A stretch of DNA of 64,000 bases from Escherichia phage vB_EcoM_WFH, in sequence record NC_048194.1, one strand, 5' to 3'. The notes under the pieces were generated by a model. That model saw only the letters and a program-made list of their open reading frames with translations, was not told where the DNA came from and did no database searches. Positions 3,209-37,326 of the stretch are shown piece by piece (positions within the stretch are counted from its first letter, which is position 1; the number at the start of each line of letters is the position of its first letter). A program made the position numbers and the translations under genes.

Positions 3209-3228
3209 TACCCTTCCGTTACTAATAG

Positions 3229-3254
3229 GCCGCGCTTAGTCGCGGCTTTTCTTC
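3229..3254 (+). terminator. Rho-independent terminator
   Basis: GCCGCG-CTTAGT-CGCGGC followed by TTTTCTTCG, immediately after the CDS ending at 3208. Confidence 0.6.
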
Positions 3255-3372: not shown

Positions 3373-3448
3373 TCGCGTAAGTCCTTGTTTTATATAGACA
3401 CCTATATCGGACCGTTAGGGAGGGTCGCGCAAGTCGTTGTTTTATAAA
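3373..3448 (+). repeat. Imperfect 24-bp direct repeat pair in a non-coding region
   Basis: TCGCGTAAGTCCTTGTTTTATATA (3373-3396) and TCGCGCAAGTCGTTGTTTTATAAA (3425-3448). Confidence 0.55.
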
Positions 3449-3571
3449 GGCGCAAAACTTTCCCTTCGTTCCGAACTAAAACGAGAAATATGCCGACCCT
3501 TCGCCCGAAAATAGTACGCATGCGAAATTACATGTATCTAGAATAATCCCCACCGATATTATCCTACACGC

Positions 3572-3723: not shown

Positions 3724-3836
3724 AAATTTGCAGTACACTAATCAAAATACGACACATTTGGTCCACTAACTTTTCAAAGAAAAAGTCCTAGACAGTACCG
3801 TACTATTTTGTACCCACAGTAAATTTGCAGTACACT
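3724..3836 (+). repeat. Two identical 16-mers AAATTTGCAGTACACT, 97 bp apart
   Basis: 3724-3739 and 3821-3836; the GTACACT core also sits in the spacers of promoter cassettes 2 and 3. Confidence 0.6.
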
Positions 3837-4395: not shown

Positions 4396-4615
4396 CTATG
4401 CTGGGTCGCCGGATACGGTCGAGCCAATGATGCCCATCTGCTGAAAGAACTCTGAATAAACTTCCTTCCAGTATTTACGGGCTGCTTTCTGTGCTTGGCC
4501 TTTGCGCTTGAAGCTTTTACCTTTTACCTTGAAATATGAAACGGTCTTTTGGCGCGGAATACTCCACCACACCTTCCAGCCATTGTAAGAATGCTACTGA
4601 TTCATTTTGATTCAT
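4396..4615 (-). CDS. Small ORF split across two frames; possible frameshifted or recoded gene
   Basis: ATG at 4615 with RBS GAGGT gives a 32-codon frame ending at 4517; an overlapping frame continues protein-like (KGQAQKAARKYWKEVYSEFFQQMG) to 4396; A-runs at the junction. Confidence 0.25.
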
Positions 4616-4622
4616 GTTAACC

Positions 4623-5018
4623 TCAACATTTTAATAAGAAAGCACCCAACCAACTTTCCTCAACCTCGCGGCCAGTAGCCACACGGTCTGTCTTTGCTAT
4701 GGGTCTGGATTCGCCGCAAGGCAATCCGTCTTGTAGTTGTGTACTATTGCCAATTCTCACCAGAACCTTTCCATCAGGGTCGATATAAGCGCGGCAACCC
4801 ATGATTTCGAGTCGTTGTAGACACTGGCGAATCGTTTTCAGCCTTTCACCGGACCGGATAGAGCGCGGTCGCGACCGTTGACCATTCTTATTCACTGTCC
4901 GCTTCACAACCGGAATCTCATTGGTGCGCTGCGCTTTCGGTCGGTAGTAGGCTTCTTCGCCAGGAGTCGCACCTGGCGTCAATTCGCGCTTGAGAGCCTT
5001 TTCAATATCGATGATCAT
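4623..5018 (-). CDS. Hypothetical basic protein
   Basis: ORF 4623-5090 trimmed to MIIDIEK; the Cys-rich N-terminal extension of the long ORF looks non-coding. Confidence 0.45.
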   Translation of the reverse strand: MIIDIEKALKRELTPGATPGEEAYYRPKAQRTNEIPVVKRTVNKNGQRSRPRSIRSGERLKTIRQCLQRLEIMGCRAYIDPDGKVLVRIGNSTQLQDGLPCGESRPIAKTDRVATGREVEESWLGAFLLKC

Positions 5019-5111: not shown

Positions 5112-5321
5112 TTATCCATTGTCCACCGCTCCAATATCCTTCAAGAACTTGTGCAAGTCGCCTTTCTTATTAAGCTTTTGCATAGTTTTGATATCATCAA
5201 GTGATATGCCTTGATCGCTTTGTTGTTTGTCAATGCAGACAATGCCGCCTTTCTTAGCCTTGATTGTCATGCCTTTGGCTTCAATACTTTTTACGAAATC
5301 GGACAATAATTTAATTTCCAT
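5112..5321 (-). CDS. Hypothetical small protein
   Basis: ATG overlaps the upstream stop (TAATG coupling) at 5321. Confidence 0.5.
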   Translation of the reverse strand: MEIKLLSDFVKSIEAKGMTIKAKKGGIVCIDKQQSDQGISLDDIKTMQKLNKKGDLHKFLKDIGAVDNG

Positions 5322-5611
5322 TAGAATCTTCTCCCACATCCATAAAAATTAAACACTAATTTTGCCATGTCATCTTGTGAAACGACACCGTAGTGTTTAG
5401 GCAAATTGCTTTCTGACAATGCCTTCTGGGCTTCTTCTTCTGTCTCAAACAAAGGGATGCACCAATTAGCTGCGTCGCCAGAATCATTGCTATCAACTTG
5501 TTTCAAGAAAACCAAGCGGTTGTCTTCAGGATCAATTCCGCAAATCACATATTTAGGCAACGCTTTTGCTTTTTGGGCCTTATCGATGTCTTCAAATTTC
5601 ATTTCATCCAC
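5321..5611 (-). CDS. Hypothetical protein
   Basis: 96-aa ORF with an acidic centre; no recognisable motif. Confidence 0.5.
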   Translation of the reverse strand: MDEMKFEDIDKAQKAKALPKYVICGIDPEDNRLVFLKQVDSNDSGDAANWCIPLFETEEEAQKALSESNLPKHYGVVSQDDMAKLVFNFYGCGRRF

Positions 5612-5684
5612 CTCACTTGTTAACGTATAATGAGTATAACTTAATAGTGCATAAAGTAAAGGCGCTGAAAGCGCCTTGAGTGAA

Positions 5685-8009
5685 TTATTTCGCTTCCTTT
5701 AGCGCGGCTATCTCTGCCTCTAGTGACTCGACCTTCTTCATCAACTCCTGCACCACGTGCATCGTATCCAAAAGCATAGGTGTTGTGTCAAGTTCTTTTT
5801 GTTCAACAATTTCTCCTGGATTGCTCCCAACATATTTGCGCGTCTTAACATATAAAGGCTCAACACCCTCTGCTTGCTGTGCAATCACGCCGTGCCGAAC
5901 TCGATTTTGTTCGTCATTGTCATAAATGAACTCTACAAATTCCAGTCCTTTAATATTAGAGTATGATTTGTCAACTCCAACAGGGGCGATGCCATGTTTT
6001 ACACGTGAGTCAGAAGTGCCATTTTTTGTATAACTGAAGTTACCGTAATCGGTTGAACCATATATTTGACCATCAATGTCAAAAAAGTAACGGCAAAATT
6101 TTCCGTTATCTCCACCGATTACCACACAAGCTATGCCGAATGCAGCATTACCTGGTAAATACATATGGTATCCAACCTTGGTTGGGTATCCATTAGGTTT
6201 GGTGGCACCGATAGAATAGCCGCGCACCAGAGTATCTGATCCACTCGCGATGGCCACTCTGTCCATTCCGTTAGTGGTCAAGTTAGATACAGCGGCATCC
6301 GTTATTCCATTCCATGTGCCTAAAGGCGTATACATGCGGAATGGGTTGGTCTTCCCTGACTGTCGAAAGTCAACGGTGCCATCTTCATAGAATTTATAAG
6401 CGTGCTTGGAAGAACCCTCCGCCTCTACGACTGCATAACTAGAAGAACCCCATGAAGAACTTGAGTACAGGCGTGCAAACTGTGATGAACTAGGATTGCT
6501 ATATTTTGACTCTACTTTGCCGCCGACAACCAGTGCGCCTGCCACTGGTGCGCTTGAGTCTGCATTGATTACGCTCCAAGACGTATTCGCAGCAACAAAT
6601 CCACCCGATGCACGAATCACCCAAACGCCAACGAAGTTACGGCCCATGATTTCACTGTTTGAACGGCCATAAACTGGGCTTGATCGACTGGCGTCAAAGC
6701 TTACACGTTGAATACCAGACCCCATGTCGTAGTTCTGTACAGGAGCCTCTGACTGGAAATACAGGAAAGGACCAGTAGCACCGTACTGAATGACGCCACC
6801 GATATTACCGATGATGTTAGGCGCAGCAGAATCAAACACAACACCATCAGCATTGGCGTTTGCCGTTCCATTCCCTGCACCATCACCTCGCCCATAGAGA
6901 GCGGCTAATGAACCAACTTGAACGCCGTTTCGGTCAGGCACGCGGAAAGTCGTTGTACCATTACCAAGTGAATACTTTCCGCGTTTTGTAGGGTCTGCAA
7001 GCCAGTCAGCATCAGCAATAGGAGTCAACATCTGCGCATAAGCCCAAAGCTCAGGCCAGTCTGCACGGTTAAGCAATTGCCCGTCTGCCACAACTTCATA
7101 CGGCTGGATGTATGCGCGACTATCACGTAAGTGAAAATCACCAACACCATAGTTCATTACACCGTTCATGTTCGGTCCAACGGTGCCAGTGTTTATAAGG
7201 TTTTGAACCCAACGTTTAGTCGCAGCATCATAATCATTCACAGGGTCACCAGCAAGCGGAGTTGGGCCTGTCGGTCGAATATTCAACCAAGCCTGCGCAT
7301 TATCCCCTGATCCTGTGCCACCCATGGAAGTGGGAACGATATTTTGATCAGCGACTTGTCCGAATCCAAAAGCAGATTTCATGCCCTGAATGGTAGTCTG
7401 GCCTGTACCACCATTTGTGACTGGGATTACATCTTTGTCGGTGTATATTCGCACCCAATTAGACCAAGCCGATGATGCAGCGGTGTATCTTCTTTGGTGC
7501 AGCGTGTTATTGGAATAAGTTGTATATCTTTGGATGCAACTTTCTGTGGCAACGCCTGTTTGTAGCACCTCAAGAACTCCCGCTTGTTCCACAGGGTAGT
7601 TAAGGGGTGCCGATGCGCCAGCATTTGCTGATTGGTGATATTGACCAAACCATGAACCAGTCAACGCATTAAGGTTGATGCCTGAGGGAATCTCTCCAAA
7701 GTTTCGGACAGTACCCGTCAAAGTCGCAGCAGTTGTTCGAATGGAAAGTAAATCACCAGCCGCCCATGCACGCGCTGCAGTACCTTCCTGTGCACGCTGC
7801 ACGGTCAGGACGTTTCCAACCACGGCTGTTACTGTGACTATTTCAAATTGTAGGCCTGTTGCAGCGTCGACGATTGTCGCCACTACACGCTCGTTTGCGC
7901 CCAAGGTCGGAAAGTCTGACCCTGAGCGAATTGTGATTGTGGTGTCTGAAGTTGTCGTTGGTTGAGCCAGCGCGACCTCAAAGTTGTTTTTGAATATTAG
8001 CCTTGGCAT
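5685..8009 (-). CDS. Tail fibre / tailspike with C-terminal intramolecular chaperone (peptidase S74-like) domain
   Basis: 774 aa; fibre-type N-terminal domain; Gly/Ser/Thr-rich shaft; C-terminal GTSDSRVKHG cleavage-type motif followed by a coiled coil (ESLEAEIAALKEAK); RBS GAGGA. Confidence 0.7.
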   Translation of the reverse strand: MPRLIFKNNFEVALAQPTTTSDTTITIRSGSDFPTLGANERVVATIVDAATGLQFEIVTVTAVVGNVLTVQRAQEGTAARAWAAGDLLSIRTTAATLTGTVRNFGEIPSGINLNALTGSWFGQYHQSANAGASAPLNYPVEQAGVLEVLQTGVATESCIQRYTTYSNNTLHQRRYTAASSAWSNWVRIYTDKDVIPVTNGGTGQTTIQGMKSAFGFGQVADQNIVPTSMGGTGSGDNAQAWLNIRPTGPTPLAGDPVNDYDAATKRWVQNLINTGTVGPNMNGVMNYGVGDFHLRDSRAYIQPYEVVADGQLLNRADWPELWAYAQMLTPIADADWLADPTKRGKYSLGNGTTTFRVPDRNGVQVGSLAALYGRGDGAGNGTANANADGVVFDSAAPNIIGNIGGVIQYGATGPFLYFQSEAPVQNYDMGSGIQRVSFDASRSSPVYGRSNSEIMGRNFVGVWVIRASGGFVAANTSWSVINADSSAPVAGALVVGGKVESKYSNPSSSQFARLYSSSSWGSSSYAVVEAEGSSKHAYKFYEDGTVDFRQSGKTNPFRMYTPLGTWNGITDAAVSNLTTNGMDRVAIASGSDTLVRGYSIGATKPNGYPTKVGYHMYLPGNAAFGIACVVIGGDNGKFCRYFFDIDGQIYGSTDYGNFSYTKNGTSDSRVKHGIAPVGVDKSYSNIKGLEFVEFIYDNDEQNRVRHGVIAQQAEGVEPLYVKTRKYVGSNPGEIVEQKELDTTPMLLDTMHVVQELMKKVESLEAEIAALKEAK

Positions 8010-8047: not shown

Positions 8048-8389
8048 TTAATTTCTTTTGAGAGGAATATGACGGTTGCTGTCATTATTTGGTTTAATAA
8101 TGAGCATAAAAACGATTAGAAAGATGATGGCTGATATACTTAATTCAATCAGCGCGGCCTGAGATATGGATTGATCTTCATGATACTGCTTTTGCATTTC
8201 TGCTTTCTTCTGAGCGCAAACTTCAGGCGATATATAATCACCTTTTGAGTTGCCATAATAAATCTCGCCATTTTCAGAAATAAGTCTGCCGCAAATATCC
8301 GTATCGGCCTTTGCACTCGACATCATAATAACGGTGCCGATGATAGCAGCAATTGTCCAGATTAGCAGTTGTGATAAAGTATTGTTCAT
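8048..8389 (-). CDS. Small membrane protein with two predicted transmembrane segments
   Basis: ORF trimmed to MNNTL after RBS AAGAGG; hydrophobic N- and C-terminal stretches. Confidence 0.5.
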   Translation of the reverse strand: MNNTLSQLLIWTIAAIIGTVIMMSSAKADTDICGRLISENGEIYYGNSKGDYISPEVCAQKKAEMQKQYHEDQSISQAALIELSISAIIFLIVFMLIIKPNNDSNRHIPLKRN

Positions 8390-8585
8390 GATAACCTCTT
8401 TAAATTCCCTTCCCATATCGGGAAGGGCGAATGTTATTTTAAGCGAAAGAATAGGCGAGTGCCACACAGAGAGTCCCAACGGCCTTCGCCGTCCCATATC
8501 GACCCAACACCAGCGGTGATTGGGCCAGCAGAATTGGCGGCATTGGCCCAGGCGAGACGTTTTAATTTCCAACTGCACCAACGAT

Positions 8586-8819
8586 TCACAGTTCATCTCC
8601 AGACTTCAAAATTAATCCCGCATAGATTATTGCCAAAGCTAAAGGCGCACCGCCGCCAGCCTCTCTATTCTCTTTGATTTGAAGAGTATCTTTTAGGAAT
8701 TGAAGCTGAACGTTGAATTCATTTTCAATTCCAAGCACTCCAGCTAATTCTTTTACAGAATCTGCATATGCCTTGTCTATCACTTCTTTTGGCACCGTTA
8801 AGGTTAATTCATTTGCCAT
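8586..8819 (-). CDS. Hypothetical protein
   Basis: Start chosen at MANELT with upstream GGAGTGGAAAG. Confidence 0.45.
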   Translation of the reverse strand: MANELTLTVPKEVIDKAYADSVKELAGVLGIENEFNVQLQFLKDTLQIKENREAGGGAPLALAIIYAGLILKSGDEL

Positions 8820-9030
8820 TTTCTTTCCACTCCACAAATGTACTGCTACTTGTTTCTCTATTTAGCAGGTATCTGCCGCGCATTCCACGAAGGCTGAACT
8901 CAACCGTCGATGGATTAGATTTTGAAAGCCACATCACTTGACCGTCGAACGGTCCGCCAACGCATGTGTATTTGGCCTTTGGCTCACTCCTTTTGGGCCT
9001 CTTTGCCCGCTCTTTGATTGATAGTCTCAT
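8809..9030 (-). CDS. Hypothetical basic protein
   Basis: 73-aa ORF in operon-like packing with neighbours. Confidence 0.4.
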   Translation of the reverse strand: MRLSIKERAKRPKRSEPKAKYTCVGGPFDGQVMWLSKSNPSTVEFSLRGMRGRYLLNRETSSSTFVEWKENGK

Positions 9031-9245
9031 CAGTCTTCACCTTGAGATTCAAGACAAGTAAGAACAAGCCACGTCATCGGAAGAATCAAAACCAGAGAAA
9101 TAAGTGACCAAATGGACCAACACAAGATGACAGACTTGAATGTATGAACGTCGCCAAACACAGCAGTGAAACAAAATCCCATCACGAAAGCAAGCGCGGT
9201 GGAGTGGTTGTCAATGGCTTTGATGGCACGGTCGATGAGTTTCAT
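9030..9245 (-). CDS. Small membrane protein
   Basis: 71 aa with two hydrophobic helices. Confidence 0.5.
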   Translation of the reverse strand: MKLIDRAIKAIDNHSTALAFVMGFCFTAVFGDVHTFKSVILCWSIWSLISLVLILPMTWLVLTCLESQGED

Positions 9246-9319
9246 ATTACCTCCGGTTTTGAGTTAATATGATTATAACGCAGAGTTTCAGAAAGGCAAA
9301 CTTTTTGTGAATTTAAATT

Positions 9320-9422: not shown

Positions 9423-10883
9423 ATGAATAAAATATTAACACATAATTGGAAAGTCATGTACCAGTTGAATCCTGCTTTAAGAGAAGTCTGGAAGACGAAA
9501 GCGCGATACAAAGTCATATACGGCGGTCGTGCATCTTCCAAATCGCACGATGCCGCTGGTTTTGCTATTTATTTGGCGGCAAACTTCAAATTAAAATTCC
9601 TTTGCGTTCGACAATTCCAGAACAAGATTTCTGAATCAGTATATACGCTATTAAAAGATAAAATAGAGATTTCTGATTTTAAAGACGAGTTCAACTTATT
9701 AAAAAACTCTATTGAACACAAAAGAACAAAATCTGAATTTTTATTTTACGGTATCGCACGCAACGTTGACGAAATCAAATCAACAGAAGGTGTTGATGTT
9801 CTTTGGCTTGAAGAAGCGCATGCACTGACTGAAGAGCAATGGGACATTATTGAGCCGACAATTCGTAAGGAAGGGTCCGAAATATGGATCATATTTAACC
9901 CTGATGAAGAGGCTGATTTCGTCTACCAGAACTTTGTTATGCGACCGCCGAAAAATGCCATCGTTAAGAAGATTAACTGGCAGGACAATCCATTCTTGTC
10001 GCAAACAATGCTGGATGTTATCGCTGGCATGTATGAGCGCGACCCGAAAAAGGCAGAACACGTTTATGGCGGAGTGCCGAAGACAGGTGGCGATAAGTCG
10101 GTCATCAACCGTGCATTCGTCAAAGCCGCGCTAAACCTCCACAAACACCCTACGCTGGGATGGAGCTTGTCAGGGTCTAACCGTATAGGCTTCGACGTGG
10201 CGGACGACGGCGACGACTTAAACGCCACAGCGTTTGTCACAGGCAACGTATTACGTGGCATCAAGACATGGGAAGGTCTGGAAGATGAATTGCTTAAGTC
10301 CGCAAGCGGAGTCTGGAAAGACGCATTGACATTCGGCGCATCAATCACCTATGACGCCATCGGTGTTGGTGCATTTGCTGGTTCAAAATTTGATGAGCTT
10401 AATGAGTATGCAATCCATGAAAATCCAACATTCCCAAGAATCGAATTTAATGCGTTCAACGCGCAAGGTGCTGTTGATGATCCTGATGACGTCTTCCTTG
10501 AGTTACCACACGTTGAAATACTCAATAAAGACCATTTCGCAAACATAAAAGCGCAAAAATGGACTGAGATTGCCGAACGATTCAGAAAGACATATGAGTA
10601 TGCGACAGGGCAAGCCGTATATCCGACCGATGAGTTGATTTCCATCGACACAGACGGCATCCCAGAACTTGGTATTCCCGCTTGGTCTGCGGAAGAAATT
10701 GAGACGTTTCTTTTTGAGATGTCAGCACCGCGCAAAGACACGTCTGTACTTGGCAAGTTCAAAGTTGAATCGAAAAAGGATATGGCAAAGCGTGGAGTCA
10801 AATCGCCTAACAAAGCGGACGCAGCAATCATGGCATTGATGAAACCAATTGTTGCAGCATCCGGCTTCTTCTCTAACCTTTAA
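9423..10883 (+). CDS. terL: Terminase large subunit
   Basis: Walker A GGRASSKSH near the N-terminus, Walker B-like VLWLEEAH, nuclease-type C-terminal half; 486 aa; portal follows. Confidence 0.9.
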   Translation: MNKILTHNWKVMYQLNPALREVWKTKARYKVIYGGRASSKSHDAAGFAIYLAANFKLKFLCVRQFQNKISESVYTLLKDKIEISDFKDEFNLLKNSIEHKRTKSEFLFYGIARNVDEIKSTEGVDVLWLEEAHALTEEQWDIIEPTIRKEGSEIWIIFNPDEEADFVYQNFVMRPPKNAIVKKINWQDNPFLSQTMLDVIAGMYERDPKKAEHVYGGVPKTGGDKSVINRAFVKAALNLHKHPTLGWSLSGSNRIGFDVADDGDDLNATAFVTGNVLRGIKTWEGLEDELLKSASGVWKDALTFGASITYDAIGVGAFAGSKFDELNEYAIHENPTFPRIEFNAFNAQGAVDDPDDVFLELPHVEILNKDHFANIKAQKWTEIAERFRKTYEYATGQAVYPTDELISIDTDGIPELGIPAWSAEEIETFLFEMSAPRKDTSVLGKFKVESKKDMAKRGVKSPNKADAAIMALMKPIVAASGFFSNL

Positions 10884-10886
10884 CAA

Positions 10887-11126
10887 TTAAAGCATTCCGT
10901 GCTGAAGGTCGAGCTTTCTTGCGGCAAACGACCTGGCACGGAATCGCTTACCCGCCCTTACTGCCTGTCGAATTTTCTTTTGCAAACACTTACGGTCAAA
11001 ATCGTTGCGGTCGACGGCTTCGAGTAAATCGCGACGCAGTGCACCCAGTGTCGACTTTTCGGAGACTTCAACGCCCAGCGCGGCTGCAACATCTTTCAAA
11101 ACATCGAGTTCGGTTAAAGTTCTCAT
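10887..11126 (-). CDS. Hypothetical protein
   Basis: 79-aa ORF with RBS AAGGGG. Confidence 0.45.
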   Translation of the reverse strand: MRTLTELDVLKDVAAALGVEVSEKSTLGALRRDLLEAVDRNDFDRKCLQKKIRQAVRAGKRFRARSFAARKLDLQHGML

Positions 11127-11539
11127 TTGATAATCCCCTTGATGTCTGATTCTGCCATAAAGATTGGAGTGCCGCCGCCAGGAACAATCGAGCGCGTGAC
11201 CTTGTCAAACATATCGTTTTCTTCAACTTGAATACGATAAAATTTATTTTTGGATGAAGATGGGCACAATCCCATAAATTTGCCGATGCCGCGAACGCAT
11301 TCATCTTCAAAGTATACTGTTTCACCTTGAATGGAGTCGATGTCGTCTACTGGATAGACCTTGCGACCCAATAGCCACTCATCCAAAGTCGCCTGCAAGA
11401 CGTTGCGCGCATCTAAAATCCACGGGTCAATAGTAGCACCTTCATATCGCGCAGCAGTGGCCTTTGCCAGTTCTTCATATTCGCATACGTTAACGACTTC
11501 GCCGTTGTGCAAGACGACAAATACAATTGTTGTGCTCAT
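11123..11539 (-). CDS. Hypothetical protein
   Basis: 138-aa ORF, stop/start overlap with the downstream gene. Confidence 0.5.
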   Translation of the reverse strand: MSTTIVFVVLHNGEVVNVCEYEELAKATAARYEGATIDPWILDARNVLQATLDEWLLGRKVYPVDDIDSIQGETVYFEDECVRGIGKFMGLCPSSSKNKFYRIQVEENDMFDKVTRSIVPGGGTPIFMAESDIKGIIK

Positions 11540-29335: not shown

Positions 29336-30208
29336 TTGAAAAAGAGAATCCTTAAAGTCACCTTATCCATGCCGGATGGCACAAGCCAAGTGCTTGACGA
29401 AGGATTGATGCTTAGATGCCGAATCAAAAAGGCAGCACTTTCCGTTCAGAATAAGGCCACGATTGAAGTCGCAGGATTAACAGGGTACTTGAGAGAGTAC
29501 CTGCTTTCCAACTTCACGGCATTCAACAAACGTCTGCGTGATCAAGGCCAGCTGGCGGCGAACTACGTCAACGTGACTATTGAAGCTGGATACAGAGAAG
29601 GGAATGTAATCAGCAGCAACTTGGTATACAAGGGACAGGTGACGACAGTTGAGATAACAGCGCCGCCGCCGAATATTGTCATCAGAATCACTTGCTACAC
29701 CAACCAAATAAACAGAACTAAGTTCATCACTCAAGCTGCGCCATCCAACCCGACTTTCAAAGAGTTTGTGGAATGGTCTGCAAAACAAATGGACATCGAT
29801 ACTGTTATTTGTGATACGTCGATTAACAATCAGCGACTTGTGAATCCAGGAAGGACGACATATGTTGCTGCTGCGCTGCTGCTTGAGATCCAGAACTATC
29901 AACGCAACTCCATCGCGGCATACATTGATGACGATACGTTAATTGTCAAGGATAAAGACAAAATTCTAAATCCAGACCAGATTACGGTCATTGAGGAATT
30001 TGTCGGAATACCGATGTGGAATGAGTGGGGTGCAGACTTCACTTGTATGTATAACGCAGATTTGAAGCTTGCACAAGGTGTTAAATTCAAATCAGTCTTA
30101 AACCCAAGCTTGAACGACACTACATTTGTCATCATGCAACTTGAATATGATTTAGCAAGTCGTGATGATATATTTACGGTGACGGGCGGCGTTGCACCAT
30201 CGGCATAA
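29336..30208 (+). CDS. Baseplate / tail hub protein
   Basis: 290 aa directly after the tape measure; start (TTG 29336 or ATG 29369) uncertain. Confidence 0.4.
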   Translation: MKKRILKVTLSMPDGTSQVLDEGLMLRCRIKKAALSVQNKATIEVAGLTGYLREYLLSNFTAFNKRLRDQGQLAANYVNVTIEAGYREGNVISSNLVYKGQVTTVEITAPPPNIVIRITCYTNQINRTKFITQAAPSNPTFKEFVEWSAKQMDIDTVICDTSINNQRLVNPGRTTYVAAALLLEIQNYQRNSIAAYIDDDTLIVKDKDKILNPDQITVIEEFVGIPMWNEWGADFTCMYNADLKLAQGVKFKSVLNPSLNDTTFVIMQLEYDLASRDDIFTVTGGVAPSA

Positions 30209-30210
30209 AT

Positions 30211-30732
30211 ATGAGAAAGAATAAAGTAATTGACTTGTTTGGCGTTACTTATGAAATTCATCAATTCAGCGCAATAGATGCATTCGAAATGGTGGACGAC
30301 ATAAGCATATTAACTCCACTTGAATTATTGAGTGAATGTTATGTCATCAAATATGACGGGTCCAAAGTAAGGCTTAATTCTGAAAAAGTAATTAGTGAGG
30401 AAGTGAAAAGCATACCTAATCACTTGCCGCCTAATCTTGTGTTGAAAGTATTAATGGAAGCCGTTAAAAAGCACAACTTTGGATTCCTTAGCGATTGGAA
30501 AGGCACCAAGATTCCAAATAGATTCTTGGCGGATGCACCGACAGTAGAGCCTAATTATCTTGAGCCAATGGTTGCAAGTCTAATAAATAACGGCCTTGCC
30601 TCTTTAAAGGAGTTGGAAGAATACTATTCATTGCGTGATGCATTTGCCATGTTTGATGGTTTAATAGCAAAATCACTTAATGAAGCCTACTCAAACGAAG
30701 CTGCCATTAAAGAATCAAAGTCAAATCGCTAA
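30211..30732 (+). CDS. Hypothetical baseplate protein
   Basis: 173-aa ORF in baseplate block. Confidence 0.4.
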   Translation: MRKNKVIDLFGVTYEIHQFSAIDAFEMVDDISILTPLELLSECYVIKYDGSKVRLNSEKVISEEVKSIPNHLPPNLVLKVLMEAVKKHNFGFLSDWKGTKIPNRFLADAPTVEPNYLEPMVASLINNGLASLKELEEYYSLRDAFAMFDGLIAKSLNEAYSNEAAIKESKSNR

Positions 30733-30789
30733 AATATTGCTTATAGACTCCTTATAGATTATAATTTGTTGATCAGATATAAGGAGTCT

Positions 30790-31518
30790 ATGATGGCAGA
30801 AAAGTTAACCCAACTTACAAGCCCCAACCAAACTGACAAATCAAGTATGTTTGCCGCGCTTCAGGGAATGCTGGACCGTGGCAAGTATACCACTGATGGC
30901 ATGATTCCTGCGCAAGTAATATCTTATGACCGCAAGAAAAATTTAGCAGTCATAAAACCTGTTATTCATTTCGTAAGTCTTGATGATAAGCCAGTGGAGC
31001 GTCAACCTTTGGTGTCAATTCCGGTACTGGCAATCGGCGGCGGCGGATTCGTGATCAACTTCCCTTTGAAGGAAGGCGACTTGGGCTGGATATTCGCTGG
31101 CGACCGCGAGTTGTCGACATTCCTTGAAGAATTGAAGCCGACCGCGCCTACCAATGGCCGTGTAAAAACTTTCGCTGATGGACTGTTCATACCGGATGTA
31201 TTCCGAAAATACACCATAAGCGGAGAGGATGCAGGGTCAATGGTAATTCAATCCCTCAGCGGCGCTGTGAGAATTGCACTAAGCGATGACTCAATAAACA
31301 TAACTGCGTCTGCTGGAGTAAACGTCAAGACCCCGATAACCACTATCGATCAACAATTGATAGTAAATGGAAAGGCAACATTCAATGGTGGGATAGAAGG
31401 CAAAGAAGGAACGACGGCAACGCTTCCGACTGGCACAACGGTCGGCGGCATTGATGTATCCACTCACGGGCATATCGGTAACGGGCCTGGAAACAGAACT
31501 GGGAATATGATAGAATGA
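30790..31518 (+). CDS. Baseplate spike / gpV-like protein
   Basis: RBS AAGGAG; Gly-rich C-terminus (GGIDVSTHGHIGNGPGN); assigned by position. Confidence 0.4.
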   Translation: MMAEKLTQLTSPNQTDKSSMFAALQGMLDRGKYTTDGMIPAQVISYDRKKNLAVIKPVIHFVSLDDKPVERQPLVSIPVLAIGGGGFVINFPLKEGDLGWIFAGDRELSTFLEELKPTAPTNGRVKTFADGLFIPDVFRKYTISGEDAGSMVIQSLSGAVRIALSDDSINITASAGVNVKTPITTIDQQLIVNGKATFNGGIEGKEGTTATLPTGTTVGGIDVSTHGHIGNGPGNRTGNMIE

Positions 31519-32786
31519 GTGCACAATATTCTTACATAGTAAGCACTGGTGTGATCACCATTGACACGGCAGATTTATTGGCTGATGTTCAAGATGAATG
31601 GATTGAGTCTTTAGGGGTCGGGCTTGATGTTGATGCTTCGACGCCGCAAGGCACGCTAATCGCAACAGAAACGTTGGCAAGAACTTCAGTGATGAAGAAC
31701 AATGCCGAATTGGGAAGTCTCATCAACCCTAACTACTCATATGGAGTATATCTTGATGCAATCGCGGCGCTTCTTGGTATCGAGCGCACAAAGAACGTAA
31801 GCACGATGTTGAAAGGTGTGACTGCAGAGGGAGTGCCGCTGCTGGAAATTCCTGCTGGAAGTCTTCTTACTGATTCAAATGGTACATACTGGTATGTTCT
31901 GGAAGACGTTCAAATCACTTCGACTGGCAAGACAAGCAATATGACTCTTGCGTCAAAAGATTATGGATCATTCACTGTTGCGCCTGATGAAGAGTTTACA
32001 GTGGTGCAAGGTTATGATGTCATCGGATGGTCAAGAACTTATTCAACGTCGGCAACAACGACCGTGCCAGGAACACAATACATGAGCGACGGAGCATTAA
32101 AGGCCGCTCGTGTTAAGCGTCTTTACCAGCAGGGCATTGCATCGCTTGGTGCCATTCGCGCTCGCGCCATGTCGGTCGACGGTGTAGAATCTGTGATGGT
32201 CGTTGAGAACGACACAGGAGCGCCTGGAACGGTGCGCGGCATCACCTTCTCAACGCCTAACGGTGTTTGGGTGTGCGCAAGCGGAACATTTGACAAGCAA
32301 GTGTTTGCGGAGACGATATTCAAGGCGAAGATGGGCGGTCAACCTTGGGACTTTGGCGCTGCTAATCAAGGTGATCCGGTAAACTCGCCTGATGGAATCG
32401 AAGTGGTCGATGCAGAATCACAACTGTCTTATTTCGTCAAATTCAACACTGCAGTGATATATGATTTGTATGTTGATATAACCGTTTCAAGAGGAACGGC
32501 TACCGCTGATGCTGAGTCTATTATTGCCGCTGTACTGAATTACGGCAATGGCAATTTTAACGGTGAGCAGGGGTATACAGTAGGGCAATCTCAATCTTCT
32601 TTTGAAATTGCTTCAGCAGTATCCTGCGAATATCCAGGACTTTACATCAAAGATTGCAAAATTGCAGCAGTCAAAAGCGGACAGGCAGCGCCAACTTATC
32701 CTTCCGATTATGGCAGCGAGTGGATTGCCAATCCATGGGATAAGGCCAATACCATGCGCGGCTTCATCAACGTTAAATTTGTGTGA
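31515..32786 (+). CDS. Baseplate J-like protein
   Basis: 423 aa between spike and fibre genes; assigned by position and size only. Confidence 0.4.
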   Translation: MSAQYSYIVSTGVITIDTADLLADVQDEWIESLGVGLDVDASTPQGTLIATETLARTSVMKNNAELGSLINPNYSYGVYLDAIAALLGIERTKNVSTMLKGVTAEGVPLLEIPAGSLLTDSNGTYWYVLEDVQITSTGKTSNMTLASKDYGSFTVAPDEEFTVVQGYDVIGWSRTYSTSATTTVPGTQYMSDGALKAARVKRLYQQGIASLGAIRARAMSVDGVESVMVVENDTGAPGTVRGITFSTPNGVWVCASGTFDKQVFAETIFKAKMGGQPWDFGAANQGDPVNSPDGIEVVDAESQLSYFVKFNTAVIYDLYVDITVSRGTATADAESIIAAVLNYGNGNFNGEQGYTVGQSQSSFEIASAVSCEYPGLYIKDCKIAAVKSGQAAPTYPSDYGSEWIANPWDKANTMRGFINVKFV

Positions 32787-32792
32787 GGAACT

Positions 32793-35531
32793 ATGCAAAA
32801 GTTTGACACAAACCTGTTGCAAAACCTTAAGTGGATGCAGAACAACGCGCCAAACATCACATCTTTGGTTCAGAAGAAGAGCGACTGGTATGAGCGATAT
32901 CAAGATCAGTTTTGGATTGACTGGTACAAGAACATATTCAACATTGATACTTGTGATGCAATGGGCATCTATATTTGGTGTGACATCCTATGCATACCAA
33001 GGGATTTTGTTGACTTAAGCAACTATGAGCACAACTGGGCGTTTGGACCCACACGCGACAACTTCGAAGGGCCGGACAATATCGGCGGCAACTTCTTTGG
33101 TGCTGGCGGAAAGGTTGTGAAAAACATCGAAGAAGCCCGCATCCTTCTGAAGCTTCGTTATCTGACGCTTACAAGTGATGGCCGCATAGAAAGCATCAAC
33201 CGTATGCTTAAGTGGATTTTCAACCGTGGAGAAGATTGGGATTACTCTTCATCGCGCTACGCATATGTGACAGATAATACTCAAGGCGCGGTGTCTTCTT
33301 CTGAAGCCACAAACGGCTCATTCCTTCTGTACGACTGGCAGGGGTCAACTGAGATTCAGCACGATTATAAACAAGTTCTTTTGAGCCACGGCAACAACGC
33401 AGGACTTACCATAAGTGGGGTGGCAGGGACCGTTTCGCGAATGGCACACCCAGACTGGTATTCATGGGGCAATGGTTCCGGCGCTGGTATTGTCGGCGGC
33501 GATACACGACAATATGGCGGCCCTGACTATTACGGCCAACTGTGCGGTGACTACCCAGGAGAGGCCATAGAGAATTTCGCCAACGCAGTACGGGTCATCA
33601 AGACCGCTTCCAGCGGCGAGCCTGTGTATTCTTTGGCCAATAATCCAAGCGCCCAATCTATTGCGCTTCCTTCTCAGGCTGGTGTCAACGTTTGCTATAG
33701 CTTCTACATAAAAGTGCTTTCTGAAAACGTGGCTTCTGTTTCCGTAACAGAGAACAGTGATGCATCGAGTAATGGAAAACTTTTCGACCCAGTGACTGGG
33801 CAGTTCAATCTTGACTCTTCTTTGAGTTATTTCATCACAGGCAAGTTCGACGGTGTGAGAAGGGAATCAAACCGTGGTGGCATCAAGGCAATCGGCGGCG
33901 ATTGGTACAGAATCTGGATTGTAGAGCAAACTGCAAACGCGACGGCTGGGGTGAAAACAAGCTTTTCAATTGAGTTGAAAGCAACTGCCGCTGGATCAAC
34001 CCAGACTCGCGAATTGCCTGAAGGGTCTGATGCGCTTCTTTTTGGATACTCCATTTGTGTTTGCGACCCTGTTCAAAATCCTAATGGGCCTGAGCCTTAT
34101 TTCTATGGGACTCAAAATCCTCCTGCAGATGGAACGGCAATCCTGTCTGTTACGGCAGGAACGCTCAACAACATATCTTGCGCAAACGGTCCGTTGACCA
34201 CAAGGGATGGCGTGGTAGGTGAATCATTCATGCAGCCTGGTTCATCGCTTGCATACTCTGGTTCAATCGGCGGCTACCCGTACCCAGGAAACGCAACATT
34301 GATTGCAGAGACAGATGGAATCAGACGCTCATGGAACGTTAGCCGACTGGACGGCGTACCGCCGCCGCCGACCGCTGACTATTACATGGAATATGTCATC
34401 GGGCCTTATTTCGCCAACAACTTATCCGACAACTTTAAGACGCTAGTTGGCGACAGGAATGAAGGATTCTTGCCAGCAAATGCCGGAATACGTTGGCAGC
34501 TTTACCAAGAAGTCGCAGACTTATCTGATATTGATTTGACCGTCAGCAACATAACAGACACGCGAGTAGGATTCGAAACGGAAGGTGTCGCATGGATTAA
34601 CACTGACGGCATCATCAGAGTTGGCGGCATAAACGAGTGGCCGTTAAACAACTTCAAAGGTGTTATACGACAGCTTGAATCTTTGAAAGGTGTGAACCAA
34701 GTTATCGACGGCGCACTTGTCAACGACTATTCAATCTCAAAAGCATCAAGAGATGACTTTGGTCGTGAAATCCCACGTGCTGCGATCACAAACTACTGGC
34801 GATACACACAGCCCAATGACGGCACATCTTTTGGAAATATCGTCAAGGACGGAGATAACACGGTAACGGCGACGCCAATCAGCGGTGTGCCCAACCAGTT
34901 CCCATCATTCAAGCTTTCCGCTACAATAGGGACTGTGCCAGCGTCCGGCTATGCACGTGCTGTACTTGCTACTAAATACACTGGCAACCTGACTGGTCCT
35001 TTGTCATTTATCGCAATAGTTAAAAACAACACGGTAAACGGTCAAAAACTTTTCGTAACCGTACCGGATGGTATGGGCGGCTATATCCCTAAATTCTACA
35101 GCATAGGCGCAGGTGATTTGCAACGCATCGAAATTGACCTTGCCGCTGAGATTGTTGCAGGAACGACTTGGGATGGTTCGACAGGTGGAATCAGCATTGG
35201 TTTGATATCAGGGAAAGACTTGCCGACCGAAGTCGGTACGACTCTTGAACTTGATATTTTAAGCTTGATGCTTGTTTCTGGTAATACGATGAATGCGCTT
35301 GCGATTTCAACAAGCGAAGACTTTGCAAAGAAAACTGCAACTTCTATATACATCAAAAACCCAGGGTCACTGGCGACTGGAGTTCAATTGATAGCTTCGA
35401 ATGGGGATGTTGTAGCGACAGTAAACTTTCCAAGAAGTGCTGCTGGCGGTTATGTCTCAAGCATGAATATAACTGACTTAACTGGTGATTGGGCATCAAC
35501 CCTTTTATCAAAAATTAAATACATCGTGTAG
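32793..35531 (+). CDS. Large tail fibre / baseplate wedge protein
   Basis: 912 aa, Gly/Ser/Thr/Asn-rich repetitive shaft; RBS GAGGAA. Confidence 0.55.
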   Translation: MQKFDTNLLQNLKWMQNNAPNITSLVQKKSDWYERYQDQFWIDWYKNIFNIDTCDAMGIYIWCDILCIPRDFVDLSNYEHNWAFGPTRDNFEGPDNIGGNFFGAGGKVVKNIEEARILLKLRYLTLTSDGRIESINRMLKWIFNRGEDWDYSSSRYAYVTDNTQGAVSSSEATNGSFLLYDWQGSTEIQHDYKQVLLSHGNNAGLTISGVAGTVSRMAHPDWYSWGNGSGAGIVGGDTRQYGGPDYYGQLCGDYPGEAIENFANAVRVIKTASSGEPVYSLANNPSAQSIALPSQAGVNVCYSFYIKVLSENVASVSVTENSDASSNGKLFDPVTGQFNLDSSLSYFITGKFDGVRRESNRGGIKAIGGDWYRIWIVEQTANATAGVKTSFSIELKATAAGSTQTRELPEGSDALLFGYSICVCDPVQNPNGPEPYFYGTQNPPADGTAILSVTAGTLNNISCANGPLTTRDGVVGESFMQPGSSLAYSGSIGGYPYPGNATLIAETDGIRRSWNVSRLDGVPPPPTADYYMEYVIGPYFANNLSDNFKTLVGDRNEGFLPANAGIRWQLYQEVADLSDIDLTVSNITDTRVGFETEGVAWINTDGIIRVGGINEWPLNNFKGVIRQLESLKGVNQVIDGALVNDYSISKASRDDFGREIPRAAITNYWRYTQPNDGTSFGNIVKDGDNTVTATPISGVPNQFPSFKLSATIGTVPASGYARAVLATKYTGNLTGPLSFIAIVKNNTVNGQKLFVTVPDGMGGYIPKFYSIGAGDLQRIEIDLAAEIVAGTTWDGSTGGISIGLISGKDLPTEVGTTLELDILSLMLVSGNTMNALAISTSEDFAKKTATSIYIKNPGSLATGVQLIASNGDVVATVNFPRSAAGGYVSSMNITDLTGDWASTLLSKIKYIV

Positions 35532-35541
35532 AGGAACGGCA

Positions 35542-37326
35542 ATGCCAACACTTATTAACAGACCTTTCGCGCAAAGCGGTGATGTATCCGTGGTGCCGGA
35601 TGCAAGCCCAAGCGGTTATGTGAACTTCCAGCGCGGCTACACACCTGACTATGCGCTTGCCCTGGAGGCTGGAAACGTCGCCGCGAAAGCTGTTGAGCGC
35701 GAATCCATGAACTGGTTGCTGAATTTGATTACAGACAACCTTATGTTTATTCAAGATCATGGCGCTCAACAATATTTCTCTTCTGACTTGAAGCCGGATG
35801 GATACCCGAAAAACGCCATCGTAGTAAGCAACTCTGGAACGCCTTCAGCGCCTGAGTGGCGCATCTTTCAAAGCGTGGTCGACGGCAACACAAGCGCCGT
35901 ACCAGCCAACGGAGAAACGGAATCTTGGCAGGAATTAACGCTGCCCAGCGAAGCGCGAAAATACATTCCGATGCCTGCTGGCGGCGATGCGCAAAACCCG
36001 TACTTTGTTCGTGGATTGATTTCAAGTTTTGTGGACTTCGATAATATCACGACTTCCACAACTATCGTGATTCAATCCGATTCCGTCGCCGCTCTGTGCT
36101 CTAACATCCCGAATGCGGTTGGCGCAACGAAGGTTGCAGGTCGGCTGCAGGTCTGCGCTTGGCAGGTCGATGCGCAGACCTTTGCCTTGCAGCAATATAC
36201 ATCAATGAATGGCTATTTGTTTACTCGCTCTTATGCTTCTGGTGCTTGGAGTGCTTGGATTCAAAATGCCACTGTTCAAGACGTGCAAATTGGAACGCCG
36301 AATCTTGCATCAGGTAAAGGAGCGCAAGACATAATCCTTACCGTCCCAGCAGGTTATTCATGGCCTCCGTCAGCAGGTAGTCGCCTGACAATCGTCAATG
36401 ATGTAACGACTACCGGACCTGTCACAGTGACCATTGGTGTAAACAAAGTTGCCGTTCTTGGATTCGACGGCAGCGAGTTGCCAGCTGGCGCTATCGTAGG
36501 CCTGTTGCCATTCACCATCATCTATGACGGCACTGTTTGGCGTCTTCTTCAGGCATTCGGCGCGGCGCAAATCGGCGTTGATGCTACGGAGCCGCAGCAG
36601 TTTGTTACCAAAAGGCAACTTGACGCGCTTGCCGCGAAGTTGATTACCATGGGCGACGTATTCGAAGTTGGTGAGACTCGATTCCTTACCAACGGTACTA
36701 ACCCAAACACTAAACTGGGCGCTTACGGTCAGGTATGGACAAGGTTGCCTGATAACATGGTGATTCGCACGTCTGGCACGGCGCGAAACGGTCTTGATAC
36801 AGGCGGTGCAGACTCTGTTACTCTTACCGCTGCAATGCTTCCACTCCACAATCACAGTGTGAACATTACCACGCGACAAAGTGGTCCATGGTCAAATACC
36901 ACTGGAGACGCAGGCAACCATAACCATATAGGTGATACAAGCCAAAACGGTGCTCACTCTCACGGTATGGATGCGGCTGGCAACCACCATCACGACAGTG
37001 GATGGGGCGAGGCGTTTGCCGACCAAGCTCGATACGGAGTTTATGATGGAACAAACAACAACATTGGAAGCAGAAAGACGGATTATGATAACTACAAGTT
37101 CAACACTTCAACTAACGGCAACCATGTCCACAATATTCAATCTTCTGGTTCACACACCCATGGCTTGAATATTCAATTTTCCGGCAATCACAGCCACAGC
37201 TATACACTTCCCGCTCACACTCACGATGTGGTCGGTAACACTGGCGATGCAGGACAGTCCGTGCCGACGGCTGTTGCTACTTTGCCGCGATACGTTGTTT
37301 TGAATGGCTGGTACAGAAGCGCATAA
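35542..37326 (+). CDS. Tail fibre with His-rich receptor-binding tip
   Basis: Fibre-type N-terminus; C-terminal HxH boxes (NHNHIGD, GAHSHG, GNHHHD, HVHNIQ, SHTHG, NHSHS, HTHD) as in metal-binding fibre tips. Confidence 0.65.
   Translation: MPTLINRPFAQSGDVSVVPDASPSGYVNFQRGYTPDYALALEAGNVAAKAVERESMNWLLNLITDNLMFIQDHGAQQYFSSDLKPDGYPKNAIVVSNSGTPSAPEWRIFQSVVDGNTSAVPANGETESWQELTLPSEARKYIPMPAGGDAQNPYFVRGLISSFVDFDNITTSTTIVIQSDSVAALCSNIPNAVGATKVAGRLQVCAWQVDAQTFALQQYTSMNGYLFTRSYASGAWSAWIQNATVQDVQIGTPNLASGKGAQDIILTVPAGYSWPPSAGSRLTIVNDVTTTGPVTVTIGVNKVAVLGFDGSELPAGAIVGLLPFTIIYDGTVWRLLQAFGAAQIGVDATEPQQFVTKRQLDALAAKLITMGDVFEVGETRFLTNGTNPNTKLGAYGQVWTRLPDNMVIRTSGTARNGLDTGGADSVTLTAAMLPLHNHSVNITTRQSGPWSNTTGDAGNHNHIGDTSQNGAHSHGMDAAGNHHHDSGWGEAFADQARYGVYDGTNNNIGSRKTDYDNYKFNTSTNGNHVHNIQSSGSHTHGLNIQFSGNHSHSYTLPAHTHDVVGNTGDAGQSVPTAVATLPRYVVLNGWYRSA

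Follow-up and report, generated by a model that had tools for sequence, protein, structure and literature searches.

The window analysed here, a stretch of 64,000 nucleotides, belongs to a Wifcevirus myovirus whose DNA is 93–95% identical to that of phages WFH and Bas99, and the gene at positions 5685..8009 of its minus strand very probably encodes the variable tail fibre that determines the host range of this phage. The fibre itself is already known, given that its orthologues are annotated with the Pfam family PF13884 and that Humolli et al. 2025 (PLoS Biol, PMC11990801) described the Wifcevirus fibre as "T-shaped", anchored to the baseplate through its N-terminus, equipped with two receptor-binding domains (RBD1 and RBD2) and finished by a C-terminal chaperone. 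What is added here is a residue-level map of the domains and breakpoints of this allele, which turns out to be a new mosaic with a distinctive RBD1 insert, and a re-reading of published proteomics, from which release of the chaperone domain is not established for the genus. A previous sequence-only reading of this DNA had proposed that a gene distant from the tail module encodes a fibre-like protein with a terminal S74-type chaperone and could determine host range, and the present analysis supports it.

The fibre gene and its genomic context

The gene is a single ORF that starts with ATG and encodes 774 residues followed by a stop codon; a GAGGA ribosome-binding site is located 7 nt upstream of the start. 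The family PHROG 6921 ('tail fiber protein') covers the whole protein (E = 1e-194), and this match, together with the ORF and its synteny, identifies the gene as the orthologue of Bas99_0109, WFC gp013, vB_Eco4M-7_27 and ECML-117 gp24. Bas99 is the phage ManiWeber, and its fibre is called 'Gp114' in PMC11990801. As the earlier reading had noticed, the gene is far from the tail module: the baseplate and fibre genes (29336-37326) are approximately 21–25 kb away and on the opposite strand. The large terminase gene (9423-10883) is just 1.4 kb away, across a divergent intergenic region. This location is not peculiar to the window, since the comparison of the locus among related phages, which had been proposed as a check, placed the gene at the same site and on the same strand in 13 of 13 relatives examined, where it is mostly annotated as a tail fibre.

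Five small co-oriented ORFs (8048..9245, minus strand) precede the fibre gene. They are kept across the genus, where they are syntenic with annotated ORFs of the relatives; none of the five matched Pfam, and the last of them (8048-8389) encodes a predicted membrane protein of 113 residues. A sigma-70-like promoter (9272..9299, minus strand; TTGCCT, a 16-nt spacer and TATAAT), recognised by its match to the consensus, could be the start of a leftward operon formed by these five ORFs and the fibre gene. Promoter-like sites are no more numerous in this region than in shuffled sequence, and for this reason the site is kept as a candidate. At the other end, 8 nt past the stop codon of the fibre gene, there is a terminator-like hairpin (5659..5677, minus strand), also a consensus match, with an 8-bp stem and a weak T tract. 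A terminator is annotated at the equivalent position in WFC.

The tail module had been read as containing two fibres, which would make the protein described here the third one. The gene at 35485-37326 does encode a fibre, homologous to gp47 of the Pbunavirus Pa193. The product of 32793-35531 was rejected as a fibre; it is a baseplate wedge or 'triplex' protein with a DUF2612 domain, whose residues 4-186 match 8env gp45 and 9b45 gp46, and which carries a C-terminal extension of approximately 700 residues. It follows that the fibre encoded at 5685..8009 is the second bona fide fibre and not the third.

Domain organization of the fibre

The N-terminal region (aa 1-105; 7695..8009, minus strand) is the presumed site of attachment to the baseplate. 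It is conserved, with 94–98% identity in 13 Wifcevirus fibres, and was named the anchor in PMC11990801. Homology was detected with the N-terminal end of the tail fibre 8jov_1 (aa 4-102, E ~1e-6), and distant copies of the region open the fibres of Ralstonia GP4-like phages, Bcep22-like phages and other groups; none was found in Pbunavirus. The fibre of the Ralstonia podophage GP4 (8jov chain 1, 439 aa) resembles the Wifcevirus protein at both ends, as it also finishes in an S74 domain, with the motif SDERLK; however, it belongs to a podovirus, it is much shorter, it lacks the series of knob, RBD1 and RBD2, and its attachment partner is presumably different.

The anchor is followed by a knob (approx. 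aa 106-200; 7410..7694, minus strand) that varies among the relatives and that matches R-pyocin fibres in both fold and profile searches. RBD1 (approx. aa 201-480; 6570..7409, minus strand) consists of a conserved core, with many invariant alignment columns, and a variable insert at approx. aa 367-436 (nt 6702-6911). Its closest known counterpart is found in the fibre LtfA of phage DT57C: residues 234-507 of the Wifcevirus protein align with residues 540-825 of LtfA with ~80% identity (E = 2e-107). In PMC11990801 RBD1 was termed Gp12-like. In our searches the family profile of the fibre did not match T4 gp12 (hhalign probability 0.4%), nor was a gp12 match obtained in Pfam, NCBIfam or the PDB profile search, and NCBIfam gave no match of any kind. 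The orthologue of phage Mansfield carries the annotation SSF88874 (SUPERFAMILY, Gp12-like RBD1).

RBD2 (approx. aa 481-665; 6015..6569, minus strand) is beta-rich and hypervariable, with 10–99% identity among Wifcevirus fibres. It was called T5-like in PMC11990801, an assignment made there for Bas99. No T5 pb1 structure appeared among our fold-search matches, for which the models of RBD2 were poor: its beta strands were predicted by AlphaFold2 at pLDDT 55–78, in a region ranging from 30 to 78. The full-length monomer reached a mean pLDDT of ~50, and the intertwined stretches aa 1-103 and 192-481, which correspond to the anchor and RBD1, remained below 50; therefore, only the fold matches of the knob and of the C-terminal chaperone are trusted. 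When the C-terminal 295 residues were modelled alone, the chaperone scored lower than it had in the complete protein (mean pLDDT 51.5), and this model was left out of the fold search.

The S74 chaperone domain and its fate

The last 109 residues (aa 666-774; 5688..6014, minus strand) form a Peptidase_S74 intramolecular chaperone (IMC), identified from the Pfam profile, invariant residues and fold matches, and the remainder of the protein matches tail fibres. PF13884 aligns to aa 666-718 over positions 1-54 of the 58 in the profile, with E = 4.2e-8 and 33.8 bits, above the curated gathering cut-off of 22 bits. A profile search had been named beforehand as the result that could overturn the S74 assignment, and its outcome confirmed it. 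The SDSRVK motif singled out in the earlier reading corresponds to aa 666-671, with the codons of Ser666 and Lys671 at 6012-6014 and 5997-5999, respectively, and a terminal helix is predicted at aa 742-773 (nt 5691-5786). The motif contains a Ser-Lys dyad, with the lysine five residues after the serine, right at the N-terminal border of the IMC; S666, D667 and K671 are invariant in an alignment of 56 homologues, and SDSRVK aligns with SGIEYK of DT57C LtfA and with SDERLK of the 8jov fibre.

The fold of the IMC matches the solved IMC domains 7dc3, 3gw6 and 3gud, and profile matches were obtained with 7dc3 (2.9e-7) and 6f45 (8e-5). Identity is only 12–25% to the S74 IMCs of the K1F endosialidase (3gw6), the GA-1 neck appendage (3gud), the L-shaped fibre pb1 of T5 and the eukaryotic MyRF ICA (7dc3). 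For these four S74 domains, autoproteolysis and release are experimentally established. From the conserved catalytic residues, a cleavage site is predicted in the Wifcevirus fibre between Thr665 and Ser666, where the protein would cut itself.

Virion proteomics, which had also been suggested as a check, is available for two orthologous phages and detected the fibre in both. In CsCl-purified vB_Eco4M-7, gp27 was the top-scoring protein, with 34 peptides and 80% coverage, and gp24 was likewise detected by mass spectrometry of CsCl-purified ECML-117 (PMC7048862). Re-reading these data, we found that the peptides of ECML-117 gp24 extend to the last one before the cleavage site and include 0 of the 7 IMC peptides, a pattern that fits removal of the IMC. 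In vB_Eco4M-7, 500 of the 2013 spectra of gp27 (25%) come from six peptides of the IMC, which makes up 14% of the protein, and the peak areas of these peptides are on a par with those obtained from the mature region; the IMC was thus not lost from this preparation. These values raise the possibility that the S74 domain is not released and remains in the virion as a lasting component of the distal tip, either uncleaved or cut but still attached. We consider this unlikely. The invariance of Ser666 and Lys671 argues for selection on proteolysis, and the ECML-117 data include the peptide immediately preceding the cut site but no IMC peptide. In addition, the vB_Eco4M-7 preparation contained non-virion proteins, namely the protease/scaffold and a helicase (PMC7048862), so that the purification may also have carried over unassembled fibre or free IMC. 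A tryptic peptide spanning the junction was reported in neither data set; nevertheless, this peptide is just 6 residues long, and for this reason its absence carries no information.

Mosaicism and exchange of modules

The T-shaped fibres of Wifcevirus (Bas99_0109, WFC gp013, vB_Eco4M-7 gp27 and ECML-117 gp24) share with the one described here the gene, the locus, the strand and the order of the domains; they are 763–785 residues long, the whole proteins are 55–89% identical, and all of them carry the S74 chaperone. Identity over the whole fibre is 84–89% to Bas99, WFH and CWP003, and this value conceals a mosaic: the anchor and the knob are like those of WFH and CWP003 (97%), RBD2 and the IMC are like those of Bas99 (99% and 96%, respectively), and with nearly all the named relatives the DNA of the RBD1 insert (aa ~367-436) gave no alignment. 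Near-identical proteins (97%) occur in public assemblies only and not in named relatives, and a scan of IMG/VR with the N-terminal 230 residues returned four loci, three of which are known isolates.

Across the 13 relatives the 94–98% identity of the anchor contrasts with the 10–99% of RBD2, and the DNA breakpoints fall inside the gene. Distal modules are held in common with siphoviruses, i.e., the Nonagvirus BRET (70%), the Tequintavirus Lindwurm (63%) and the Dhillonvirus PEC14 (85%), in whose gp35 the similarity covers RBD2 and the IMC. The comparison indicates that the exchangeable host-range cassette proposed before is real but intragenic: the RBD1 insert and the RBD2 and IMC block recombine, whereas the gene is not exchanged as a whole, and the anchor and the flanking genes are fixed. 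An invertible segment or a DGR-type switch was also considered as the basis of the cassette and was ruled out, as neither the fibre gene nor its flanks contain meaningful repeats, inverted or direct. The exchange of modules is recombination between phages.

Host range and receptor

It has been shown in the literature that the phages Bas98-101, which include an orthologue of this fibre in Bas99, depend on the O16 O-antigen (PMC11990801). Additional evidence comes from DT57C LtfA (PDB 8hqz chain d; PMC4728585; Ayala et al. 2023, PMC10713586), which binds O-antigen. Besides the similarity in RBD1, LtfA has a C-terminal S74 chaperone homologous to that of the Wifcevirus fibre, with the Ser and Lys residues aligned, and its C-terminal part sets the specificity for O22-like versus O87 O-antigen (Golomidova et al. 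2016, PMC4728585). The two proteins differ in other respects: LtfA is a siphovirus protein of 1076 residues, with a T5-type N-terminal attachment domain, a long shaft and a second protein, LtfB, whereas the anchor of the Wifcevirus fibre is short and of another type, and the baseplate that presumably carries it is that of a contractile tail.

A fibre of this kind could still have a conserved receptor or a mechanical role and leave specificity to the fibre at 35485-37326 or to the wedge protein at 32793-35531. The receptor of the allele in the window is only inferred, the wedge protein has its ~700-residue extension, and the phylogeny of RBD2 did not correlate with host recognition (PMC11990801), all of which would agree with such a role; we nevertheless regard it as improbable, given that none of the other structural regions compared varies nearly as much as the distal part of this fibre, that the tail-module fibre was reported to be highly conserved across the genus (PMC11990801), that homologous LtfA domains experimentally switch O-antigen specificity (PMC4728585), and that gp27 was also the gene highlighted as differing between relatives by the authors of the vB_Eco4M-7 study (PMC7048862). 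The protein could also be imagined as an enzymatic tailspike or depolymerase, such as an endosialidase. It was in endosialidases that the S74 domain was originally recognised, and the orthologue of SP13 is annotated as 'endo-N-acetylneuraminidase', a label that most likely goes back to the wording 'Chaperone of endosialidase' used in Pfam. An enzyme is very improbable, however, since the only Pfam match is the chaperone, no sialidase, beta-propeller, beta-helix or lyase domain was detected at E<=0.1, and the PHROG, PDB and fold matches are all fibres (DT57C LtfA, R-pyocin fibre, Pa193 gp47 and T4 gp34).

A working model of the non-enzymatic, host-range-determining fibre can be outlined. The gene would be expressed as the last one of a leftward operon starting beside the large terminase gene. 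Three chains would trimerise, with the S74 domain (aa 666-774) nucleating the folding of the distal fibre, by analogy with K1F/endoNF, T5 pb1 and GA-1, and the Ser666-Lys671 dyad would then cut the chain before Ser666 to yield a mature fibre of ~665 residues. The conserved N-terminal 105 residues would dock the fibre at a putative site on the baseplate, from which the pyocin-type knob and then RBD1 and RBD2 would project outward, the latter two most likely binding O-antigen or LPS glycans. Specificity would shift when recombination swaps the RBD1 insert or the block of RBD2 plus IMC for modules of other coliphages, siphoviruses included.

Two further ideas, which are speculative and to which we give little credence, would modify this model. 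The Wifcevirus chaperone may not always be discarded and, at least in alleles such as that of vB_Eco4M-7, could stay on RBD2 after folding, possibly after cleavage, contributing to the distal tip or regulating it. Separately, a Pbunavirus-like baseplate could have gained this additional fibre by using the lineage-specific extension of the wedge protein as a docking platform; beyond the genus, sequences related to the anchor were detected in fibres of podoviruses, siphoviruses and other myoviruses.

The fibre encoded at 5685..8009 is the main candidate for what decides which O-serotypes of E. coli or Shigella are open to infection by a Wifcevirus. Being built from modules, it lends itself naturally to host-range engineering, as already recognised in the literature.

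The fibre and its S74-type chaperone domain

The gene at 5685..8009 (minus strand) is a single, ATG-initiated reading frame of 774 codons, with a ribosome-binding site (GAGGA) 7 nt upstream and a terminator-like hairpin (5677-5659, minus strand) that begins 8 nt past its stop codon. PHROG 6921 'tail fiber protein' covers the product end to end (E=1e-194), and the sole Pfam domain detected was PF13884 (Peptidase_S74, 'Chaperone of endosialidase') at residues 666-718 (E=4.2e-8), its 33.8 bits exceeding the curated threshold of 22. The SDSRVK motif occupies residues 666-671, and an alignment of 56 homologues (58-97% identity) revealed that S666, D667 and K671 are invariant. Coordinates, Pfam, PHROG and motif position all agree with the sequence-only reading, which had placed here a fibre with an S74-type chaperone motif.

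The N-terminal anchor (residues 1-105), 94-98% identical across 13 Wifcevirus fibres, is homologous to the N-terminus of the fibre in structure 8jov, which is linked to Ralstonia phage GP4; distantly related domains stand at the start of fibres from a range of podo-, sipho- and myoviruses, with no Pbunavirus among them. The receptor-binding domain RBD1 (residues ~201-480) has a highly conserved core surrounding a variable insert (residues ~367-436), and residues 234-507 are ~80% identical to residues 540-825 of LtfA, the lateral tail fibre of the T5-like phage DT57C (8hqz_d, E=2e-107). RBD2 (residues ~481-665) is hypervariable, with identities of 10-99%. The S74 chaperone (residues 666-774) shows, besides PF13884 and the three invariant residues, family profile matches by sequence to 7dc3 (2.9e-7), 6f45 (8e-5) and 3gud (0.044), as well as a predicted terminal helix. 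The AlphaFold2 monomer model of the whole fibre was poor overall (mean pLDDT 49.7), its confident parts being residues 105-190 and the chaperone domain, including the terminal helix (residues 742-773).

This gene is the orthologue of the Wifcevirus 'T-shaped' fibre with two receptor-binding domains (PMC11990801); given the GenBank annotation of relatives and this 2025 analysis, the feature is already known. In that work RBD1 and RBD2 were assigned as 'Gp12-like' and 'T5-like', respectively, using SUPERFAMILY and AlphaFold-Multimer. Here, hhalign gave a probability of 0.4% for RBD1 against T4 gp12, and, as regards RBD2, the fold matches included no T5 pb1 structure, monomer models of intertwined trimers being unreliable; both outcomes are limits of the present tests and not evidence against the published assignments.

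Genomic context

Wifcevirus WFH and ManiWeber (Bas99) match the region at 93-95% identity, and ~35 further Wifcevirus myoviruses with E. coli or Shigella hosts do so at 84-92%. The fibre gene is the last of a leftward block that originates in the divergent intergenic region adjoining the large terminase gene, and its position and strand are unchanged in 13 of the 13 relatives examined; most of their records annotate it as a tail fibre, and PF13884 is mentioned in several. The structural module extends rightward from terL (9423) through the sheath gene (22135) and the baseplate genes to a fibre gene (35485-37326) and the endolysin. The location far from the tail module and on the opposite strand is thus borne out, with 21-25 kb to the baseplate and fibre genes, although the structural block begins only 1.4 kb away.

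Small reading frames precede the fibre gene; the nearest, directly upstream (8048-8389, minus strand), encodes a conserved product of ~113 residues that is predicted to be a membrane protein; it has a signal-like N-terminus, a C-terminal hydrophobic helix and no Pfam match. It is kept at the same position in 12 of 13 relatives, the short CWP003 locus having no annotation there. On the minus strand, a near-consensus promoter-like site (9299-9272) is closely preceded by a strong terminator-like hairpin (9347-9327) with a T7 tail. Two minus-strand frames of 79 and 138 residues are found between terL and the portal gene (10887-11539), and their transcripts would cross terL antisense, towards this hairpin. 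An extra 231-nt frame occurs between the fibre operon and terL in Bas100 (4444-4674), Bas101 (4447-4677), vB_Eco4M-7 (4646-4876) and Mansfield (4602-4832), each in its own coordinates; it is absent from the window, where the equivalent place is ~9313-9319. Its product in vB_Eco4M-7 (gp32, 7.8 kDa) was found by mass spectrometry in purified phage (PMC7048862).

Two frames lie downstream of the fibre gene (5112-5339 and 5321-5602, both minus strand). The 75-residue frame varies as an indel between relatives; the ~93-residue frame next to it may encode a virion-associated protein, since its orthologue vB_Eco4M-7_26 (10.5 kDa) was detected in purified phage with 62% coverage by mass spectrometry (PMC7048862). 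A long intergenic stretch is flanked by convergent terminator-like sites at 3227-3248 (plus strand) and 3876-3859 (minus strand), and contains two repeats (3373-3449 and 3724-3836) of two copies each: one direct, of 25 nt, with the copies 52 nt apart, the other exact, of 16 nt, with the copies 97 nt apart. Both may be regulatory or origin-like elements.

Two fibres rather than three

The sequence-only reading had counted two fibres in the tail module and this one as a third. The gene at 35485-37326 is indeed homologous to the gp47 tail fibre of Pbunavirus Pa193 (9b45_2, E=8e-32). The product of 32793-35531 (plus strand, 912 residues) is not recognisable as a fibre: its first 186 residues match Pbunavirus baseplate 'wedge 2 / triplex' proteins (9b45_v and 8env_K, E ~1e-41), a DUF2612 match is likewise confined to the first ~186 residues, and no family match was obtained for the remaining ~700. 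The Pbunavirus wedge proteins have ~500 residues; the ~700-residue part is a lineage-specific extension, and one may speculate that it might serve as a docking site for the extra fibre. The phage therefore has two bona fide fibres, the gene under study encoding the second, in agreement with Humolli et al. 2025 (PMC11990801).

Presence in purified phage and fate of the chaperone domain

Published LC-MS/MS data on CsCl-purified vB_Eco4M-7 and ECML-117 (Necel et al. 2020, PMC7048862) show the orthologues in purified phage preparations. In vB_Eco4M-7 no protein scored higher than the orthologue gp27 (34 peptides, 80% coverage, 2013 spectra), and peptides of the wedge protein (gp62) and of the other fibre (gp63) were likewise detected; in ECML-117, gp24 was represented by 18 peptides. 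When the supplementary peptide lists (Tables S2 and S3) were mapped onto the predicted cleavage site, the two data sets disagreed on the S74 domain. The two fibres have homologous S74 domains with the same SDERIK motif. In ECML-117 the last peptide before the cleavage site was present and none of seven chaperone peptides was, a pattern that fits cleavage and loss. In vB_Eco4M-7, six chaperone-domain peptides accounted for 500 of the 2013 spectra (25%), which fits either retention of the chaperone or its co-purification; this preparation also contained non-virion proteins. The junction peptide is unreported in both data sets. Cleavage of the Wifcevirus fibres is thus a prediction, well motivated by the invariant Ser666/Lys671 dyad and unproven in these phages.

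Exchange of receptor-binding modules and predicted receptor

DNA comparison with relatives revealed sharp breakpoints inside the fibre gene. The RBD1 insert (6702-6910) is unalignable with nearly all the named relatives, and RBD2 together with the chaperone (5720-6555) is replaced in ECML-117, FEC19, Bas98, Bas100, Bas101, vB_Eco4M-7, SP13 and Mansfield, whereas the anchor and the genes flanking the fibre gene are retained throughout. The distal modules are also present outside Wifcevirus: residues 236-760 are 70% identical to gp25 of Nonagvirus BRET and 63% identical to ID021 of Tequintavirus Lindwurm, and residues 474-760 are 85% identical to gp35 of Dhillonvirus PEC14. In BRET and Lindwurm, the two siphoviruses in which the genes upstream were compared, this module forms a protein of its own, encoded downstream of a proximal fibre gene. 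Repeats that would point to programmed switching of the fibre gene, whether inverted or direct, were not found. From the internal breakpoints, the conserved anchor and flanks, and the modules common to other genera, it is concluded that the unit of exchange is a domain within the gene, which passes from phage to phage by recombination. The proposed exchangeable host-range cassette was therefore right in spirit but not as a whole-gene cassette; with this and the fibre count as minor corrections, the sequence-only reading is supported.

In the best-supported mechanism, the S74 domain would nucleate folding as the fibre chains trimerise, Ser666/Lys671 would carry out autoproteolysis with the cut before Ser666, the conserved N-terminus would dock the fibre onto the baseplate, and RBD1 and RBD2 would bind surface glycans. 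Bas98-101 depend completely on the O16 O-antigen (PMC11990801), and the homologous C-terminal regions of LtfA in DT57C and DT571/2 switch recognition between O22-like and O87 O-antigens (PMC4728585); on these grounds, the predicted receptor is a glycan.
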